In this document: positions 8,696 to 53,356 of the stretch, piece by piece
How positions within the stretch are numbered: the first letter of the stretch is position 1
Layout: each line of letters begins with the position of its first letter
NCBI RefSeq assembly: GCF_035594765.1
Contig: NW_026943825.1
Coordinates: 14,190,753-14,254,589 of the forward strand
DNA length: 63,837 nucleotides
Direction of reading: 5' to 3'
Origin: Anolis carolinensis
Taxonomy: Eukaryota
Made by a program: the position numbers and the translations under genes
Notes under the pieces: model-generated
Told to the model about the DNA's origin: nothing
Databases searched by the model: none
The model's input: the letters and a program-made list of their open reading frames with translations, nothing else

Positions 8696-9395
8696 TGTAA
8701 TGAAGTATGAATTTTTGGTTTACAGATGTTATGTTTCATTGTGTGTTTTAAAAGGGTAAGTATTACAGTTATTGCTTCTCTGCACTCAGAGGCTGGTTGC
8801 CATGGAGAAGTAGGCGGAGCCAACTGCTGTTTTGTTGAAGAAGTGCAGATTTTAAAAAAGGGATTCAGTCTGTGCTCTGATGAGGCACAGGGAAGATTGA
8901 TCCTAGGTTGAGGGGATCAAGGGAGACTCAATTGTCCATTTTGAGTCGGTTTAAAATAAGTTTGGTGATTTATTTAATGTAGTCAGTGTCCTGGTAAGGA
9001 ACAGTATATCACAGGGGTGACTGCGGTTTAAAAGTACCAGAGGAAGAAGTTCTAACTACTTTAAGTAAAAGAAGTGACACTTTAGGGAGTTTGACTCACC
9101 TTATTCTAGTATTGTAACTGTTAATAAAAGTGCCTCTAAGTGAGAAACAACAATTGTAACCACTAAGCTCTGTGCCTGAATAAACTTGTTATTGTTCTTC
9201 CAACATCTAAGCCTCTATCGCATATATTATAAACTAAGTTACGCTACCATCTAAAGTGAAGTAGAAAGAAAGAAAAAGTAAAAGGTCTCCTCTCTGAGTC
9301 TTTGGTGGTTGCATCTTCCCAAATTGGTGGCAATGGTGGGATAAAAAGATTCCCCCCTTGCCTGAAAAAACCTTAGTCGTTATTAGCTCCTCGCA
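8696..9395 (+). mobile_element. Solo LTR with internal PBS-like units (copy 1 of 3)
   Basis: TGTAA...CA termini; TSD CATGC/CACGC; AATAAA 9179-9184; homologous to 47189-47923 and 52579-53356. Confidence 0.85.
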
Positions 9396-12965: not shown

Positions 12966-14861
12966 ATGTATTGTACTGACCAGCAGTGTAAGCAAGCATG
13001 CTTGCCCCCTCCTTCCTACCAGAAGATTGTTGGGACTCAAGATATATCAGGATGTGGACCACGATACAGATGCCAGAGAGGACAGTCCTACACACCCCAA
13101 TGTATATCACCATGCCCTCCCCAGCAGAGACACTCCTATGTACCAGTATCCCCACAGTCATGTTCTCCCCAGAGGCAACCTTCGTATCCTTTGCAACACC
13201 GTCCAACCTTTGTGCCTAAATGGATCCAACCATCATGTCCTCTGCAGCACCGTCCAGCCTTTGCACCAGACTGCATACAACCACCACGTCCTCTGCAATG
13301 CCGTTCATCCTTTTCACCCGACAGCATCCAACCAGTACCTCCACTGCAACGTCGTTCATCCTTTTCACCGGACACCATCCAACCAGTACCTCCTCTGCAA
13401 AGCCGTCCGTCCTTTGCACCTGACTGCATACAACCACCAAGCCCTATCCAGAACCAACCACTGCTTGCACCAGACCATCTACAACCAGCATCGCCTCCCC
13501 ACAGTAAACCATCATGTTCCTCAGATAGCATCCAACCATCTTATCCTCACCAGGGCCTTCCATCGATTGTCCCGGACCACATAGAAACCACATGTCCTCC
13601 CCAGCGTCAGCCACCATGTTCCTCAGATACCCTACAACCATCGTATCCTCCCCAGAGAAAGCCATCCTTTACACCATCATATCCTCCCCAGAGTCAGCCA
13701 CCATGTTCCTCAGATACCCTACAACCATCGTATCCTCCCCAGAGAAAGCCACCATGTTCCTCAGATACCCTACAACCATTGTATCCTCCTCAGAGAAGGC
13801 CATCCTTTACACCATCATATCCTCCCCAGAGTCAGCCACCATGTTCCTCAGATATACAACCATTGTATCCTCCCCAGAGAAAGCCATCCTTTACACCATC
13901 ATATCCTCCCCAGAGTCAGCCACCATGTTCCTCAGATACCCTACAACCATCATATCCTCCCCAGAGAAAGCCACCATGTTCCTCAGATACCCTACAACCA
14001 TTGTATCCTCCCCAGAGAAAACCATCTTATACACCACTATATCAACCCCAGCAAAAGCCACCATGTTCCTCAGAAACTCTACAACCATCGTATCCTCTCC
14101 AGAGACGGCCATCCTTTACACCATCATATCCTCCCCAGAGTCAGCCTCCATGTTCCTCAGATACCCTACAACCATCATATCCTCCCCAGAGAAGACCATC
14201 CTATACACCACCATGGATCCAGCCATGCTCTTCACAGGGCGAAGCATCCTATGAACCTCCTTGCCCAAGGCCCTCTTTTCCTGAAAGACCACTGTCCCCT
14301 CCACAGAGCATTCTTCAGCCATATGCTTCACCACAGAAGTACCAGTACACCCAGAAGCCATGTTGCCCCCCATGCAAGTCCGTGTGTTTTGGTTCCCAGC
14401 AGACACGCATGCCCCAAGCTGTGCAAACATGTGCTCCTAAAGGGAAATGTGTATCTCAAGGTTTTCTGGGATCTCAATGTTCACAAGGTGCCATCAAGGG
14501 AAACCAACAAGGTGTGATCAAAGGTGGACAACAGTATGGGAGTCAACAATGCATTAAGAAGGGAGGGCCAGTAGGTATAACCAAGAGTGTGCAACAGTGT
14601 GCATGCCAACCGGGTATCATGAAAGGAGGACTCTGTGGCCAGCAATATGGCAGCCAACCATTCATAACCAAGGGAGTTTCAGCAGGGAAAGCTATGGCAA
14701 TTCAACAGGGTGCGAGTCAAGCGTATGTGACAAAGGGAGGTCCAGGATTTGCAGTCAAGAGTAGTCCACAGTGGTCAAGTCAACCATGCATCTCAAAGGG
14801 AGGACCCATGTATGCTACAAAGGGCAGTCAAGGGTATATAAGAAAGGGGACTAAGTGGTAA
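12966..14861 (+). CDS. EDPSQ: Single-coding-exon EDC protein rich in Pro/Ser/Gln, 631 aa
   Basis: Acceptor ttctcccAG 12937-12938; ATG 12966; N-terminus MYCTDQQCKQACLPPP is the SPRR/SEDC motif; central 17-aa and 12-aa tandem repeats; KG-rich tail. Symbol from composition and recalled synteny. Confidence 0.9.
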   Translation: MYCTDQQCKQACLPPPSYQKIVGTQDISGCGPRYRCQRGQSYTPQCISPCPPQQRHSYVPVSPQSCSPQRQPSYPLQHRPTFVPKWIQPSCPLQHRPAFAPDCIQPPRPLQCRSSFSPDSIQPVPPLQRRSSFSPDTIQPVPPLQSRPSFAPDCIQPPSPIQNQPLLAPDHLQPASPPHSKPSCSSDSIQPSYPHQGLPSIVPDHIETTCPPQRQPPCSSDTLQPSYPPQRKPSFTPSYPPQSQPPCSSDTLQPSYPPQRKPPCSSDTLQPLYPPQRRPSFTPSYPPQSQPPCSSDIQPLYPPQRKPSFTPSYPPQSQPPCSSDTLQPSYPPQRKPPCSSDTLQPLYPPQRKPSYTPLYQPQQKPPCSSETLQPSYPLQRRPSFTPSYPPQSQPPCSSDTLQPSYPPQRRPSYTPPWIQPCSSQGEASYEPPCPRPSFPERPLSPPQSILQPYASPQKYQYTQKPCCPPCKSVCFGSQQTRMPQAVQTCAPKGKCVSQGFLGSQCSQGAIKGNQQGVIKGGQQYGSQQCIKKGGPVGITKSVQQCACQPGIMKGGLCGQQYGSQPFITKGVSAGKAMAIQQGASQAYVTKGGPGFAVKSSPQWSSQPCISKGGPMYATKGSQGYIRKGTKW

Positions 14862-16056: not shown

Positions 16057-16585
16057 TATTACAGTCAGGCCTCCACATTTACAGGTTTCGCTTTGGCGGA
16101 CTTTATTATCGGCGGATCTGATGAATAAGTTCTCTTTAGTAATCTCGCAGTTCAACTTCCACTGGTTCAGCTTTGTTTCATGCACAAAATAAATAAAATA
16201 TTGTTATCAAATGACTCCCAGGCTACTGTGTATAAGCTGGTTACGAAACATAAATGAATTCTGTGTTGAGGCTTGGGTCCCATCTTCAAGATAACTCATG
16301 ATGCACGTATGTACAAACACTGTTACGACAGAATTTGAAAAAAATTAAAATCCTAAACACTTCTGTCCCAAACATTTCAGATAAGGGGGGAGACTCAAAA
16401 TGGATTTCTTGATTGAAAAAAGTCAAGAAAGCGAAAAGTCAATGCCCTTCTTTCCTTAACAGTATTCTGGTCATTCAATTGATCAATTTTTGTTGTGTCA
16501 GGCTGATAGAAATGTCACTGGTCTGACCAACATTTCCAAAATGGACGCCATTCATCTGAAGCTGGATTTCCAAGGCCAACTATCT

Positions 16586-17530
16586 GCTAGTTTCCATGAT
16601 TTTTCTCCTAATTCCCATGATTCTTCTCCTAGTTCCTACAAGTCTTCTCTAGTTCCTACAATTCTTCTTTAGTTCCTATGTTTCTTCTTGTGTCCACGGT
16701 TCTTCTCCTAGTTCCCATGATTTCTCTCCTAGTTCCCATAAGTCTTCTCTAGTTTTTATGATTCTTCTTGGCTCCTATGAGTCTTCAAGTGCCTACAATT
16801 CTTCTCCTGGTTCCTACAAGTCTTCTGTACTTACAATTCTTCTTTAGATCCTATGATTCTTCTCATGTCTACGATTCTTCTCCTAGTTCCCATGATTTCT
16901 CTCCTAGTTCCTATAAGTCTTCTCTAGTTCTTACAATTCTTCTTGGTTTCTGTGAGTCTTCAAGTGGCTATGATTCTTCTCCTAGTTACTACAAGTCTTA
17001 TCTAGTGCCTACAATTCCTTTTTAGTTCCTATGATTTTTCTCCTGTCTATGATTCTTCTCCCAGTTCCCATGATTCTCATCCTAGTTCCTTCAGGTTTTC
17101 TCTAGTTCTTACAATTCTTCTTGGTTTCTGTGAGTCTTCAAGTGCCTATGATTCTTCTCCTAGTTACTACAAGTCTTCTCTAGTTCCTACAATTCTTATT
17201 TAGTTCCTATGATTTTTCTCCTGTTTACGATTCTTCTCCCAGTTCCCATGATTCTCCTCCTAGTTCCTTCAGGTTTTTTCTAGTTCTTACAATTCTTCTT
17301 GGTTTCTGTGAGTCTTCAAGTGCCTATGATTCTTCTCCTAGTTACTACCAGTCTTCTCTAGTTCCTACAATTCGTCTTTAGCTCCTATGATTTTTCTCCT
17401 GTCTACGATTCTTCTCCCAGTTCCTACAAGTCTTCTCTAGTTCCTATTATTCTCCTCCTAGTCCCTATTCTTCTTCTTCTAATTCCTACCATTCTTCTCT
17501 AGTTCCTATGATTCTTCTCCCAGTCTCTTC
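16586..17530. repeat. Pyrimidine-rich minisatellite, ~20-bp subunits in a ~177-bp higher-order repeat
   Basis: TTCTTCTC(C)TAGTTCC subunits; marker GAGTCTTCAAGT at ~16779, 16954, 17133, 17310. Confidence 0.9.
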
Positions 17531-23184: not shown

Positions 23185-23804
23185 GAACCATTCAGTATGA
23201 TTTCCCCTGATACAATTTCCGATCCATTAAATCTTTCCAAAAGACCAATGCCTGGATCACCTTATTTTTAGAAGCATTTGATGATGTTTTGCAGTGTGGA
23301 TTTAATAACACATTCACACCACTGACTAACTAAATTAGTTAAAGAGTGGGTGAAATTTTCATTGTGCAGATGGAAGGAGCAAGATTTCCTAGCTTTTGGA
23401 CTTCCTCGGCTCCTTGTCAACAAATGCTGACGATTCGGAAGCAAAAACAAAAGAGCTGGAATCATTCTTAGGTTGATACTGTTTAGTTCCCAAAAGCTGA
23501 AGCCAATGAATGTAGCTTGGATGAGATTTACAACTGGTTGGAAGAGTTTATTGGAAGTTTGTCAGTGGATTCCACCTCCGGCAAAATTCAAAATACTCTC
23601 ATTCCGAGTAAGATGTATCCGAGAAGCTGCAAAGAAATTGTAAGGTTTCTTGGGGATGTTTTTGTTTTCTTGCTGGATGCAGAATCATCTGCAGTGTAGA
23701 AATAATGCAGTTTGACACCACTTGTGTTGCCATAGTTCACTGGTATGGAATCATAGGGCATGTAGTTTTCTCTATCAAAGAATGCCTCACCACTCTACAA
23801 CTTG

Positions 23805-25410
23805 TGATCATCTCAAGACCTTGAAGGTCTACCTGAATGTTCCTCTATGTCATCATCTGAAATGGTCAGGATTCCTCTGATTTTAGAACATTGGGCCATG
23901 ACCGTCACAGTAGTCCCAAACTGTATTAGTTCTGTAATGTAGATGAACCTGCAAACTCATTTCTTCCTAAGATGCGGTGGAGGCTCCTTCTTTGGAGGCT
24001 ACAACTTACTATCATCTCAAGACCTTGAAGGTCTACCTGAATGTTCCTCTATGTCATCATCTGAAATGGTCAAGATTCCCCAGATTCTAGAACATTGAGC
24101 ATGGCAGTCAAAGTGGTTCCAAACTGCATTAATTCTGTAGTGTAGATGAACCTGCAAGCTTACATGGGCATAAATCTAAGATGTGGTGGAGGCTCCTTCT
24201 TTGGAGACTACAACTTACTATCATCTCAAGACCTTGAAGGTCTACCGGACTGCCCCTCTGTGTCATGATCTGAAATGGTCAGGATTCCCCTGATTCTAGA
24301 ACATTGAGCATGGCAGTCAAAGTGGTTCCAAACTGCATTAATTCTGTAGTGTAGATGAACCTGCAAGCTTACATGGGCATAAATCTAAGATGTGGTGGAG
24401 GCTCCTTCTTTGGAGACTACAACTTACTATCATCTCAAGACCTTGAAGGTCTACTGGACTGCCCCTCTGTGTCATGATCTGAAATGGTCAGGATTCCCCT
24501 GATTCTAGAACATTGAGTCATGGCAGTTAATGTGGTGCCAAACTGCATTAATTCTGTAGTGTAGATGAACCCGCAAGCTCACATGGGCATAAATCTAAGA
24601 TGTAGTGCAGGCCCTTTCTTTGGAGGCTACAACTTACTATCATCTCAAGAGCTTGAAGGTCTACCTGACTGCCCCTCTGTACCATCATCTGAAATGGTCA
24701 GGATTCCCCTGATTCTAGAACATTGAATCATGGCAGTTAAAGTGGTGCCAAACTGCATTAATTCTGTAGTGTAGATGAACCCGCAAGCTCACATGGGCAT
24801 AAATCTAAGATGTAGTGCAGGCCCTTTCTTTGGAGGCTACAACTTACTATCATCTCAAGACCTTGAAGGTCTACCTGAATGTTCCTCTATGTCATCATCT
24901 GAAATGGTCAAGATCCCCCAGATTCTAGAACATTGAGCCATGGCAGTTAAAGTGGTTCCAAACTGCATTAGTTCTGTAGTGTAGATGAACCCACAAGCTC
25001 ATTTCTTCCTAAGATGTGGTGAAGGCTCTTTCTTTGGAGGCTACAACTTACTATCATCTCAAGAGCTTGAAGGTCTACCTGAAAGTTCCTCTATGTCATC
25101 ATCTGAAATGGTCAGGATTTTAGAACATTGGGCCATGACCATCATAGTAGTCCCAAACTGCATTAGTTCTGTAGTGTAGATGAACCCACAAACTCATTTC
25201 TTCCTAAGATGTGGTGGAGGCTCTTTCTTTGGAGGCTACAACTTACTATCATCTCAAGACCTTGAAGGTCTACCTGACTGCCCCTCTGTGTCATCATCTG
25301 AAATGGTCAGGATTCTTCTGATTCTAGAACATTGAGCCATGACAGTCAAAGTGGACCCAAACTGCATTAGTTCTGTAGTGTGGATGAACCCCCAAGCTCA
25401 TTTCTTCCTC
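23805..25410. repeat. ~205-bp tandem array (~8 units) in the predicted EDYM2 intron
   Basis: ATCATCTCAAGA(C/G)CTTGAAGGTCTAC recurs about every 195-210 bp. Confidence 0.93.
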
Positions 25411-25555
25411 TACTTTTGTAGGCGTTCCATTGTTCCCAATCATTTTGGGGAACAGGGTTTCTGGAAGACCTTACAAAAAATGCATGTCACAAAGAGGTTT
25501 TTCTAGCTTCAAACCTGTTGTAGAATATGCACCTATGCCAATATACATGGGCATA

Positions 25556-25710
25556 AGCTCAAGATGTGGTGGAGGCTCCTTCTTTGGAGGCTTTTAAGCA
25601 GAGGCTAGATGGCCATCTGTTGGGAGTGCTTTGTATGCGATTTCCTGCTTCTTGGCAAGGGGTTGGACTGGATGGCTCATGAGGTCTCTTCCAACTCTAG
25701 GATTCTAAGA
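25556..25710 (+). mobile_element. CR1 LINE 3' end
   Basis: GGAGGCTTTTAAGCAGAGGCT...GGGGTTGGACTGGATG...TCTTCCAACTCTAGGATTCT. Confidence 0.8.
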
Positions 25711-35659: not shown

Positions 35660-36500
35660 CATGAAATAATCATGGATGAAGGTGGCAGGAGGTTGCCAAT
35701 GACCACAGAAGATAGCAGGAGGTAACCTGCCATGGAAGTGGCACATGGTAGAGGTAGCAGGAGGTGACTTGGACCACCAATAGAGGTGGCAGCAGCTAGG
35801 CAGGTACAATTGGTAACTTGGGACCATAGATGGAGGTTGTAGCAGGTAGCGTTGGACCATGGATAAAGATGACAGCAGTTATCCAGGGATGATAGATGGA
35901 AGTGGCAGTAGGTAGACAAGAACCATGGATGGAGGCAACAGGGGATAGCTTGGGACCATGGATCAAGGTGACAGGAGGTAGTCAGAAACCACAGATGAAG
36001 GTGTCAGGAGGTTGCCAATGACCACAGAAGAAGATAGCAGGAGGTAACCTGCCATGGAAGTGGCACATGGTAGAGGTGGCAGGAGGTGACTTGGACTACC
36101 GATAGAGGTGGCAGCAGCTAGACAGGTACCATGGATGGAGGTGGCAATTGGTAACTTGGGACCATAGGTGGAGGTTGTAGCAGGTAGCTTTGGACCATGG
36201 ATAAAGATGACAGGAGGTATCCAGGGATGATAGATAGAAGTGGCAGTAGGTAGGCAAGAACTATGGATGGAGGCAACAGGGGATAGCTTGGGACCAAGGA
36301 TCAAGGTGGCAGGAGGTAGTCAGAAACTACAGGTGAAGATGGCAGGAGGTAACCAGGAACTACGGATGGAGGTGGATGGAGACAACCATGGATGGAGGTG
36401 GAAAGAGGTAACAAAGGACCATGGGTGAGGTGGCAGTAGGTAGCCTGGGACCATGGATGGAGGTGGCAGGAGGTAGCCCGGGATCATGGATGGAGATGGT
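35660..36500. repeat. Purine-rich intronic minisatellite with a ~320-bp internal duplication
   Basis: Units like GGACCATGGATGGAGGTGGCAGGAGGTAGC; block ~35680-36000 repeats at ~36000-36330. Confidence 0.85.
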
Positions 36501-38819: not shown

Positions 38820-39505
38820 CAGGGGTCCCCAAACTAAGGCCCGTGGGCCGGATGCGGCCCTTCAAGGTCATTACCTGGCCCCTGTCCTAAACTTTAGACT
38901 TAGGGTTGACCTACATCTACCTGGTCTTTGGAGGTCTCTTTGTTTACTTATGGCCTCATGAGATCATCTAGATGGTCTTTGAAGGTCTCATTGCTTAGCT
39001 ACGGCCTTATGAGACCATCTAGATGGCTTTTGGAGGTCACTTTCATTACCTGTGGTCCTATGAGACCGTCTAGATGGCCTATGAGGGTCCCTTTCCTTAC
39101 CTATGGTTTTATGAAATTGTCTAGATGGCCTTTGGGGGCCCCTTTCCTTACCTATGGTCTTATTAGATTGTCTAGATGGCCCTTGAGGGTCCCTTTCCTT
39201 ATCTATGGTCTTTTGATGGCCTGATGAGATCATCTAGATGGCATTTGAGGGTCCCTTTCCTTACTGATGGTCTTATGAGACCATTTAGATGGTCTTTGGA
39301 AGTGTCTTTGCTCCGAGACCCCTCCAAGGTCATTTATCTGGCCCCTGTCCTAAACTTTAGACTTAGGGTTGGCCTAAGTGTGAAATGACTTGAAGGCACA
39401 CAACAACCACAATCCTAATTTTGGACTATTTCATCATAGTCTGGCCCCACAACAGTCAGAGGGACTGTGAATTGGCCCTCCACTTAAAAAGTTTGAAGAC
39501 CCCTG
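38820..39505. mobile_element. hAT MITE containing a ~49-bp minisatellite
   Basis: TIRs CAGGGGTCCCCAAACT / AGTTTGAAGACCCCTG; TSD ACATAGAC; TCTAGATGG repeat units ~38920-39310. Confidence 0.88.
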
Positions 39506-43646: not shown

Positions 43647-44754
43647 CTTGGGGACCCCGCCGGTGCCCGGGTCATTTGAGAAAGGCATTGTTTGCCTGTG
43701 TTCCAAGTGTAGTCTCAATCCAATGTCAGCTGGAGTGGTGCGGATGAACTACATCTCCTATCTGGAAGTCCCATCGTGCATGATCTATCCCTCGCCAAAC
43801 AGTGCCAGGATGTAAAATGAATCATGGGGGCTCTGTGTATCAAGTTTGGTCCTTATTCGTCATTAGTGGGAGTCACAGTGCTCTCAAGAAGTGAGTGAAG
43901 GTATTGCATGTCCCATCATCCATGCTCCATCACCCTCCAAACAATGCTAGTAGATGTTGAGTAGATCATGGGGACTATATGTGTCAAGTTTAGTCTTGAT
44001 CAGACATTGATGGGAGTCGCAGTGCTCCCTGGAAATGAGTAAAGGTATTGGAAGTCCCATCATCCATGGTCCATCCCATTTCAAACAGTGGCAGGATGTA
44101 GAGTAGGTCATGGGGGGTTTGTGTACCAAGTTTGGTCCTCATTTGTCATTGCTGGGGGTGGCAGTGGTCTCGGGAAGTGAGTGAAGATACTGCAAATCCC
44201 ATTGCAGCATTTAAAGTGAGTCATTTGGGCCACATTGCATCTTTGTTCCAAGTTTGGTCTAGTTGTGTCATTTGTAGGGCTCACAATGGTCTGTGGGAGG
44301 TGAATCGGGGGAAGGTACTGCAAATCCCATAATCCTTGGTCTGTCCTGCCCCAAACTGCAGCAGCATGTAAACTGTGTCATATGATCTATGTGTGCCAAG
44401 TCTGGTCCAATTCTGTTATTCCTGGCAGTTGTAGTGGTGTCAGGAAGTGAGTGAAGGTACTGTAAGTCCCATCATCCTTGGTGTGTCCTCCGCCAAACTG
44501 CAGCAGGACATAAAGGGGGTCATGGGAGCTCTGTCTGCCAAGTTTGGTCCAGTTCCGTCACTCGTGGGCATGGCAGTGATCTGTGGGAGCTGTAACTATG
44601 GAAAGTACTACAAATCCCATCATCTGTTGTCCATCCTCCCCCAAACAGCACCAGGCCGTAACGTGTGTTATGGGGGACAAGTGTGTTGAGTTTGGTCCAG
44701 ATCCGTCATTCGTGACGGTCGTAGTTGTCTGTGTAAGTGGCGGCCAATCAGAAA
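43643..44754 (-). mobile_element. Probable Helitron-like element with internal diverged ~155-bp tandem repeats, cut by the gap
   Basis: Minus-strand GC-rich hairpin-like end plus CTAA at ~43643-43672; CCAAGTTTGGTCC-like marker recurs about every 140-160 bp. Confidence 0.55.
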
Positions 44755-47188: not shown

Positions 47189-47923
47189 TGTAAAGGAGAG
47201 TCTTATTTTATTAAACACTGCTACCAATTGTAAGATGTTTATTTACGCTGCCACCAAATTATAAAGTCTTTATAATGCTGCCACCAACTGTAAAGGGGAT
47301 TATTAATGCTTGACACCACTTTGGAAAAATGCACCAAAGAACTAGAGAGGAGACCTTTTAATTCTTGTTTTTCTTTCTTCTTCTTATTTACTTAGATGGT
47401 AACACAACTCAGTTCATAATACATGTGACAGAGGCTTAGATGTTTGAGGAACAACAACAAGCTTATTCAGACACAGAGCTTAGTGGTTACAATGACATTT
47501 CTCCTTAGAGGCACTTTAGTTAACAGTTGCAATATTAGAATAAGGTAATTCAAACTTCTTAAAATGTCACTTCTTTCTTTACTGCTTTTAAACCACAGTC
47601 ATCTTGTGATATACAATCACAAATTCTCCGTTCCTTATCAGGACACAGACTGCATTAAATAAGTCACCAAACTTATTTTAAACTGACTCAAAAAATAAGC
47701 AATTGAGCCTCCCTGATCCCTTCAACCCAGGATCAGTCTTCCCTGTGCCTCATTAGAGCACAGACTCTGTTTTTTTAAAAACTCGGCAGTTGGCTCCACC
47801 CACTTCTCCATGGCAACCAACCTCTGAGTGCTGAGATGCAATAATTGAAATACTGACCCTTTGAAAACACAAACACATAATTACACATAACATCTGTAAA
47901 CCAAAAATTCACACTTCATTACA
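47189..47923 (-). mobile_element. Solo LTR with PBS-like array (copy 2)
   Basis: TGTAA...TTACA termini; perfect TSD GGGAC. Confidence 0.9.
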
Positions 47924-52578: not shown

Positions 52579-53356
52579 TGTAAAGAACTAAGAATGACTA
52601 AGGTTCTTTCAGGCGGGGGGGGGGGATCTTTTTATCCCACCGCTGCCACCACTTTGTAAAGAGCTAATAACGACTGCCACCAATTTGTAAAGATACAACT
52701 AACGACTGCCACCACTTTGTGAAGATGCAACCACCAAAGACTCAGGAGGAGACCTTTTACTTTTTTTCTTTCTTCTTTTTATTCACTTTAGATGGTAACG
52801 TAATTTGGTTAATAATATATGTGACAGAGGCTTAGATGTTGGAAGAACAATAACAAGTTTATTCAGGCACAGAGCTTAGTGGTTACAATATTGTTTCTCA
52901 CTAGGAGGTATTTTTATTAACAGTTACAATGCTAGAATAAGATGAGTCAAAATCCCTAAAGTGTCACTTCTTTTACTTAAAGTAGTTAGAACTTTTTTCT
53001 CTGTTACTTTTAAACTACAGTCGCCCCTGTGATATACGATCACAGATACTCTGTTCCTTACCAGGACACAGACTACATTAAACAAGTCACCAAACTTATT
53101 TTAATCCGACTCAAAATGAACAATTGAGTCCCCTTGACCCCCTCAACATAGGATCAATCTTCCCTGTGCCTCATCAGAGCACAGACTGACCCCTTTTTAA
53201 AACTCTGCACTTCTTCAACAAAACGGCAGTTGGCTCCGCCTACTTTTCCATGGCAACCAGCCTCTGAGTGCTGAGATGCAATAACTGTAATACTTACCCT
53301 TTTAAAAACACAAACACACATAACATCTGTAAACCAAAAATTCGTACTTCATTACA
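52579..53356 (-). mobile_element. Solo LTR with PBS-like array (copy 3), in the CBP-B' intron, sense to the gene
   Basis: TGTAA...TTACA termini; perfect TSD AACTT; 18-nt TGGTGGCAGCGGTGGGAT at 52634-52651 (minus). Confidence 0.92.

Follow-up and report, generated by a model that had tools for sequence, protein, structure and literature searches.

Ordered arrays of tRNA-Leu primer-binding sites inside the long terminal repeats of Gmr1-like Ty3/Gypsy elements of Anolis carolinensis, a probable by-product of reverse transcription

The window analysed here, a stretch of 63,837 nucleotides from contig NW_026943825.1 of Anolis carolinensis, contains three solo long terminal repeats (LTRs; copies A, B and C) whose U5 ends consist of successive units, each combining a tRNA-Leu primer-binding site (PBS), or a stub of one, with a spacer that tends to close like an LTR end. 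By the textbook description, the PBS is external to the LTR, whose end it marks, a rule that hundreds of genomic copies of this family break in an ordered way. Our results suggest that, in a Gmr1-like Ty3/Gypsy clan, reverse transcription probably builds up the array as a by-product, in the manner of a ratchet, with new units arising at the 3' end.

The array in U5 is real and not a product of chance. Its junction motif was counted eight times within the three U5 ends but only twice across both strands of the 61,624 bases that make up the rest of the window, and a pattern joining LTR end, 18-nt PBS and AAAA has 145 exact matches in the genome searched (1.85 Gb, 211 contigs), compared with none for the reversed control. 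All three LTRs start with TGTAATGA, end in CA and lie between 5-bp target site duplications (TSDs), at the coordinates given by an earlier sequence-only reading of this DNA, with one TSD mismatch in copy A. Alignment agrees with that reading that the copies are colinear through GGTCTCCTC..TCTT and divergent beyond, and its counts of two, five and four units hold if the most decayed first unit is included. Some of its details need amendment: spacers of the array at 47189-47336 do close in an LTR-end mimic, TTACA, in three of five units, but TTATA stands in one and TCCA in another; the first unit of every array follows TCTT and not CA; and copy B reads AATAAG where the poly(A) signal upstream of its array would be expected to read AATAAA. 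A terminal-repeat miniature (TRIM) or tandem-LTR element was considered and rejected, as the window copies are single LTRs of 700-780 bp between TSDs, with no polypurine tract (PPT) or second repeat inside.

Because the window copies are solo LTRs, their family assignment passes through LTR similarity. The LTR core returned 2,196 first-look candidates in the genome, of which 40 were scored, and the LTR start returned 381 exact matches; among the 100 of these that were listed, the sole close pair consisted of two solo-like LTRs. A PPT-like pattern before the LTR start was abandoned, its 14 matches being solo LTRs in purine-rich sites with no common internal sequence. Two matches to the pattern of LTR end, PBS and AAAA, 3 kb apart, led to locus L105, a two-LTR element with TSD, PPT and leader, and its leader as a query gave 44 genome matches; a Pfam integrase scan, too broad alone, was useful only by overlap with these leader matches. 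Locus L156, which has a sister LTR and the same leader, encodes RVP (387-473), integrase (584-936), reverse transcriptase (RT; 1061-1218) and RNase H (1285-1414) in a single frame, and L141, with an LTR that shows 84% similarity to copy C across 540 nt, encodes SCAN, then integrase, then RT. The SCAN domain (PF02023) scores above cut-off in L156, L141 and L144. With the order SCAN, protease (PR), integrase (INT), RT and RNase H (RH), TG..CA LTRs, a 5-bp TSD and a PPT all found in the clan, the pol order, SCAN domain and PBS place the window LTRs, on sequence grounds, in a Gmr1-like Ty3/Gypsy clan that uses tRNA-Leu as its primer.

The 18-nt PBS is exactly complementary to host tRNA-Leu(AAG/TAG) genes, as called by ARAGORN, with CCA added; an RT stop at the modified A58 is expected to give 18 nt. 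A second unit type matches host tRNA-Leu(CAG), and the proposal that the units are U5-end/PBS junctions for tRNA-Leu is thereby supported by host genes of both kinds. The stub of copy B that had been likened to tRNA-iMet is, as was noted, one change from Leu; that change is a point mutation private to copy B, where sister copies have TGGTGGCAG. Priming by iMet was rejected, the better fit being to iMet in only one of 136 parsed units.

The anatomy of the units links them to the ends of LTRs that have none. In loci L112, L113 and L127, whose LTRs lack inner units, the LTR closes with an A-run, then an inverted PBS-like stretch, a brief tail and a TTACA-like end; the working PBS comes next, and after it the leader. 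Long units begin with an 18-nt PBS, after which A-run, inverted stretch and tail come exactly as in these unit-free ends (30 of the 145 pattern matches viewed). Among 74 distinct exact PBS contexts (from fetched loci, a set enriched by the search for LTR end, PBS and AAAA), 61 continue into the A-run and inverted stretch and one into the leader. Short units retain 9-13 nt of the PBS plus the tail; those of the subfamily of copy C read like a long unit minus its hairpin part, and in other subfamilies the middle of the PBS is interrupted by TG or AT-rich expansion. Short stubs are most simply read, from their sequence, as decayed or hairpin-deleted full units. The inverted stretch is predicted to fold on the inner PBS, the long unit of copy C folding better than shuffled sequences (z -2.18) and that of copy A less distinctly so (z -0.82); the array of copy B folds no better than shuffles (z +0.89). 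Predicted opening costs are 12.5-19.6 kcal/mol for inner full units (12 units) compared with 7.0-13.2 for leader-side sites (10).

Growth of the array is polar. Unit number ranges from 1 to 6 across genomic copies, as counted by a parser that used 41 of 72 loci (45 had a TSD with at most one mismatch, 4 of these without anchor), overlooked unit 0 of copy B and divided copy A too finely. Among 49 units of 15 3' LTRs anchored on the PPT (drawn from 30 loci as those with the common first unit, duplicates excluded), all 11 near-exact units (17-18 of 18 matches) lie 3' of all decayed units, each copy having zero to two of them after the common run. Of 18 solo LTRs chosen just because they contain a full unit, 16 have it in last place; in 23 solo LTRs chosen without this criterion, it is last in 4, second-last in 1 and never further in. 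The polar 3' growth that had been anticipated is thus evident as an age gradient in both solo and PPT-anchored LTRs, with the youngest units at the 3' end. In a tree of 41 LTR rows, built with no formal test and with recombination likely, terminal full units occur in several separate clades. An ordinary minisatellite lacking polarity is contradicted by this gradient together with the tRNA-derived sequence in the units, although internal insertions and deletions do occur. The earlier idea that the LTR grows by absorbing its old end plus a PBS stub stands as regards polar growth, but what is added is a full 18-nt PBS with a re-copied U5 tail; similarly, the units do form an ordered record of past ends, one that internal deletions and duplications prevent from being purely additive.

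A comparison of inner units with the PBS of the elements themselves points to tRNA as the template. Of 30 elements, 1 has a tRNA-exact leader-side PBS, and 23 have C at a position where the tRNA would specify T (the 30 rows include 3 truncated or mis-parsed sites and 11 near-identical copies). Inner full units, by contrast, have T in 23 of 24 and are tRNA-exact in 6 of 24, one false match in a flank having been dropped. Once the 11 near-identical young copies are removed, exact sites number 1 of 19 on the leader side compared with 6 of 13 inside. On this sequence comparison, new inner units mostly appear to match the tRNA better than does the element's own PBS. No tRNA gene with the C variant was found among 27 pattern matches. 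The leader-side mismatch variants are common to young copies, 29 of 30 sites differing from the tRNA; the working PBS appears to be inherited with its mismatches and so would not be routinely re-copied from tRNA. Many leader-side sites (L111-L140) also contain a one-base insertion at position 9-10, common among copies and possibly the mark of a strand-transfer junction. The most direct case is an inner unit of L168, inside a TSD-bounded LTR, which follows tRNA-Leu for ~43 nt, switches at common letters into U5 and repeats the preceding unit. Read-through of 31-46 nt into the tRNA, joined to other sequence, occurs in L161, L167 and L169.

Arrays are equal in 16 of the 21 two-LTR elements with both ends readable (L141, L158, L160, and further sets of ten and three pairs), both array ends having been obtained in 7 of 20 stretches and 6 of 16 in a second set; L246/L219, whose LTRs are only 90% alike, was dropped. 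In L239/L209 the 5' array is longer by one unit, which starts with a PBS matching at 17 of 18 positions, and the 3' LTR matches the 5' array exactly up to the point where it stops, as an exact prefix, with intact TSDs; priming from a full inner PBS would fit this, as would the acquisition of a unit from a partner RNA. The 5' array is longer by two, with chimeric units, in L146, and longer but rearranged, with repeated dimers of stub and full unit, in L142. In a young sister family, one three-unit array is common to 25 of 28 matches, and of 15 ends of solo or 3' LTRs not one falls at an inner unit, indicating that stubs are not routine primers there. Alternative priming from stubs, as had been suggested, was not observed in that family, and L239/L209 alone is compatible with priming at an inner site, a full PBS. 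The two LTRs of L105 (2045-2892 and 4943-5849) have U3 regions 95% alike, the same last unit and intact TSDs, and R-U5 middles of different subfamilies, for which we propose recombination between co-packaged RNAs or later conversion.

A route to such units can be sketched from the Ty1/Ty3 model, in which the earliest plus-strand DNA includes a copy of part of the primer tRNA and as a rule leads no further. Occasionally, such a strand would pair with the complement of U5 carried by the minus strand and copy the U5 tail a second time, a Ty-type route of this kind supplying both parts needed for the birth of a unit, namely a tRNA-copying strand and a U5 template. The product would be a tRNA copy plus the old LTR end, placed in front of the working PBS, and once the leader-side PBS had primed the following round, the unit would be present in both LTRs. 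In young inner units, tRNA-exact PBS copies are indeed seen to halt at nucleotide 18 or go further into the tRNA, with U5 resuming some 30-55 nt upstream of its end. The inverted PBS-like stretch of the re-copied tail would fold on the inner PBS and reduce access to it; older units would decay to stubs of 9-13 nt, and crossovers between units would delete or duplicate them. The array is most likely a tolerated by-product that makes the reverse transcription pathway readable from the genome. A broader version, in which tRNA-templated DNA would be repeatedly fixed in U5 across the clan, the inverted stretch muting each new site, as a log of tRNA-Leu isoacceptors whose stubs are kept to recruit primer tRNA or titrate 3' tRNA fragments, seems to us decidedly unlikely.

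Several observations weigh against a by-product ratchet. The C/T site lies in a CpG, so decay alone can make C into T; one widespread inner unit, the third, resembles the insertion-bearing leader-side PBS and so looks copied from the element and not from tRNA; and copies within subfamilies are not independent. Stub units stand 3' of full units in L037, L056, L057, L060, L062, L120 and L142. The extra 5' unit of L239/L209 and its preceding neighbour disagree at several sites, no two-LTR element was caught with a newborn unit whose tail is identical to its neighbour's, and L252/L235 has the longer array, by one unit and with chimeric units, in the 3' LTR, a configuration that, like that of L146, fits deletion between repeats. 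Predicted net tRNA binding favours the inner exact PBS in several elements, and the hairpin alone therefore fails to explain the choice of priming site.

Some of these observations would suit a rival account, in which the genomic U5 end and PBS are duplicated and deleted in tandem by RT slippage on the RNA or unequal crossover, polarity arising solely through the use and retention of the 3'-most PBS. Pure addition is indeed contradicted by internal losses and one duplication in the subfamily of copy B (L004, L006, L007, L016 and L018) and by chimeric units in L146 and L252, to which the dimers of L142 and the inner units of leader-PBS type can be added. Such copying, however, cannot yield tRNA-exact inner units where the element's own PBS is inexact, nor the second tRNA-Leu unit type, nor 43 nt of tRNA inside U5. 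Tandem duplication and deletion operate as a secondary process; as the main source of the array they are unlikely.

Selection might instead maintain the array, with stubs recruiting primer tRNA, serving as landing pads for strand transfer or soaking up 3' tRNA fragments, the last idea drawing on work in mouse. Arrays are present in every LTR subfamily sampled and invariant in the young one (the 25 of 28 matches above), and across 12 copies the first 10 nt of the stubs diverge less than the spacers (0.066 versus 0.137), a weak conservation that is the sole sign of a function. The stub value, however, equals the U3-R background (0.078), inner ends are unconserved (0.174, a figure noisy in alignment), elements with no or one inner unit have transposed (L141, L145, L068 and L072), and binding of the tRNA end to stubs of 9-11 nt is predicted at about -15 to -23 kcal/mol compared with -39 for the full site, all of which makes selection improbable as an explanation. 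It is extremely unlikely that the number of units depends chiefly on priming from alternative sites inside the array, with the LTR trimmed to an earlier end, a process which the exact-prefix 3' LTR of L239/L209 would fit and which would explain loss but not gain, given the equal arrays of most two-LTR elements and the lack of ends at inner units in the young family.

Table 1 Solo LTRs of the window and their U5 units
Feature	Position	Strand	Description
Solo LTR copy A	8696..9395	+	700 bp; TSD CATGC/CACGC, one mismatch; AATAAA at 9179
Copy A terminal long unit	9325..9395	+	18-nt Leu PBS (mutated), A-run, inverted PBS-like stretch 9348-9362, U5 tail
Solo LTR copy B	47189..47923	-	735 bp; TSD GTCCC
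Copy B unit 0	47319..47336	-	Most decayed unit; 4 nt shorter than in sister copies
Copy B unit 1	47287..47318	-	tRNA-Leu(CAG)-type PBS stub; spacer with TTTACA end; 2 nt
Copy B unit 2	47257..47286	-	tRNA-Leu(AAG/TAG) stub, 10 nt; spacer with TTTATA end; 3 nt
Copy B unit 3	47227..47256	-	tRNA-Leu stub, 11 nt; spacer with CTTACA end; 2 nt
Copy B unit 4, terminal	47189..47226	-	Leu stub with private G>A (iMet look-alike); spacer is the real LTR end
Solo LTR copy C	52579..53356	-	778 bp; TSD AAGTT; AATAAA at 52863
Copy C units 0-2	52652..52736	-	One decayed unit and two units with 9-nt stubs
Copy C terminal long unit	52579..52651	-	Exact 18-nt tRNA-Leu PBS, A-run, inverted PBS-like stretch 52612-52628 folding onto PBS, U5 tail

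The survey also brought up derivatives of the clan. L105 (2985-3733), L145 (1595-2407) and L146 (1475-2923) are non-autonomous two-LTR derivatives of ~2 kb internal length, in which an N-terminal coiled coil of Gag precedes a DUSP domain captured from the host. This domain is closest to USP4 and then USP15, lies in one open frame in L145 and is split between frames in L105 and L146; a DUSP-related motif lies upstream of L224 and L230 too. In a deletion derivative (L161, L162, L163, L217, L218 and L222), the PBS extends at least 31 nt into tRNA-Leu and is followed by integrase-like coding sequence; it is found in tandem, as an LTR-internal-LTR array, and also elsewhere. Internal deletions in L142 and L154 fuse early gag to the U5 array of the 3' LTR, and an inverted unit array of another family member at the U5 end of L071 is a nested insertion in opposite orientation. 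The interspersed repeats of the window appear to resemble those of lizards. Tandem repeats unrelated to the LTRs lie in the window at 13495-14299, 16583-17519, 23795-25592, 35668-36500, 38899-39309 and 43746-44733, with periods of about 51/36, 78/100, 209, 33, 51 and 142 nt, respectively.

If they arose as proposed, the arrays would be natural evidence for a yeast Ty-type plus-strand route in a vertebrate Ty3/Gypsy clan and would show the fate of 'dead-end' strands. They would also record which tRNA-Leu primed earlier rounds and offer an ordered lineage marker for LTR subfamilies, and tools that place LTR ends by the first PBS will be misled by them. Should stubs truly bind tRNA fragments, they would represent a testable counter-defence. 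Literature searches, whose scope did not extend to the first Gmr1 papers or Repbase/Dfam, brought up no title or abstract that describes arrays of PBS within LTRs, polar and tRNA-templated or otherwise. An extra PBS in the LTR may be mentioned by Butler, Goodwin and Poulter (2001) and Goodwin and Poulter (2002), to which we give somewhat less than an even chance.

Among known systems, Gmr1-like Ty3/Gypsy elements are described, in the passages cited, as having integrase upstream of RT and as the source of the SCAN domain (bioRxiv 10.1101/2025.03.03.638093, PMC3587641), and a Leu PBS is given for a sturgeon relative (PMC11640988). The SCAN-PR-INT-RT-RH order and the tRNA-Leu PBS are the same here, whereas U5 arrays of PBS go unmentioned in those parts of the published descriptions that were compared. 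For Ty1/Ty3, the account cited holds that the primer is not the source of the PBS, that the earliest plus strand, which includes a partial copy of the tRNA, is a dead end and that transfer takes place via R-U5 on the minus strand (PMC5371799). The anole elements likewise keep a PBS with tRNA mismatches over many copies, but their tRNA-copying strand appears at times to be rescued and fixed as a heritable U5 unit, and their primer is tRNA-Leu with an 18-nt stop, rather than iMet with 12 nt. HIV-1 isolates of the MAL type are reported, in the section cited, to have a partial PBS duplication, one 23-nt insertion downstream of the PBS and outside the LTR (PMC3185550). There, as here, a heritable extra part-copy of the PBS adjoins the working site; in the anole, by contrast, up to ~six units lie upstream, inside both LTRs, each rebuilding the LTR end. 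The element type and single PBS duplications are already known, and the polar tRNA-templated array in U5 is probably new.
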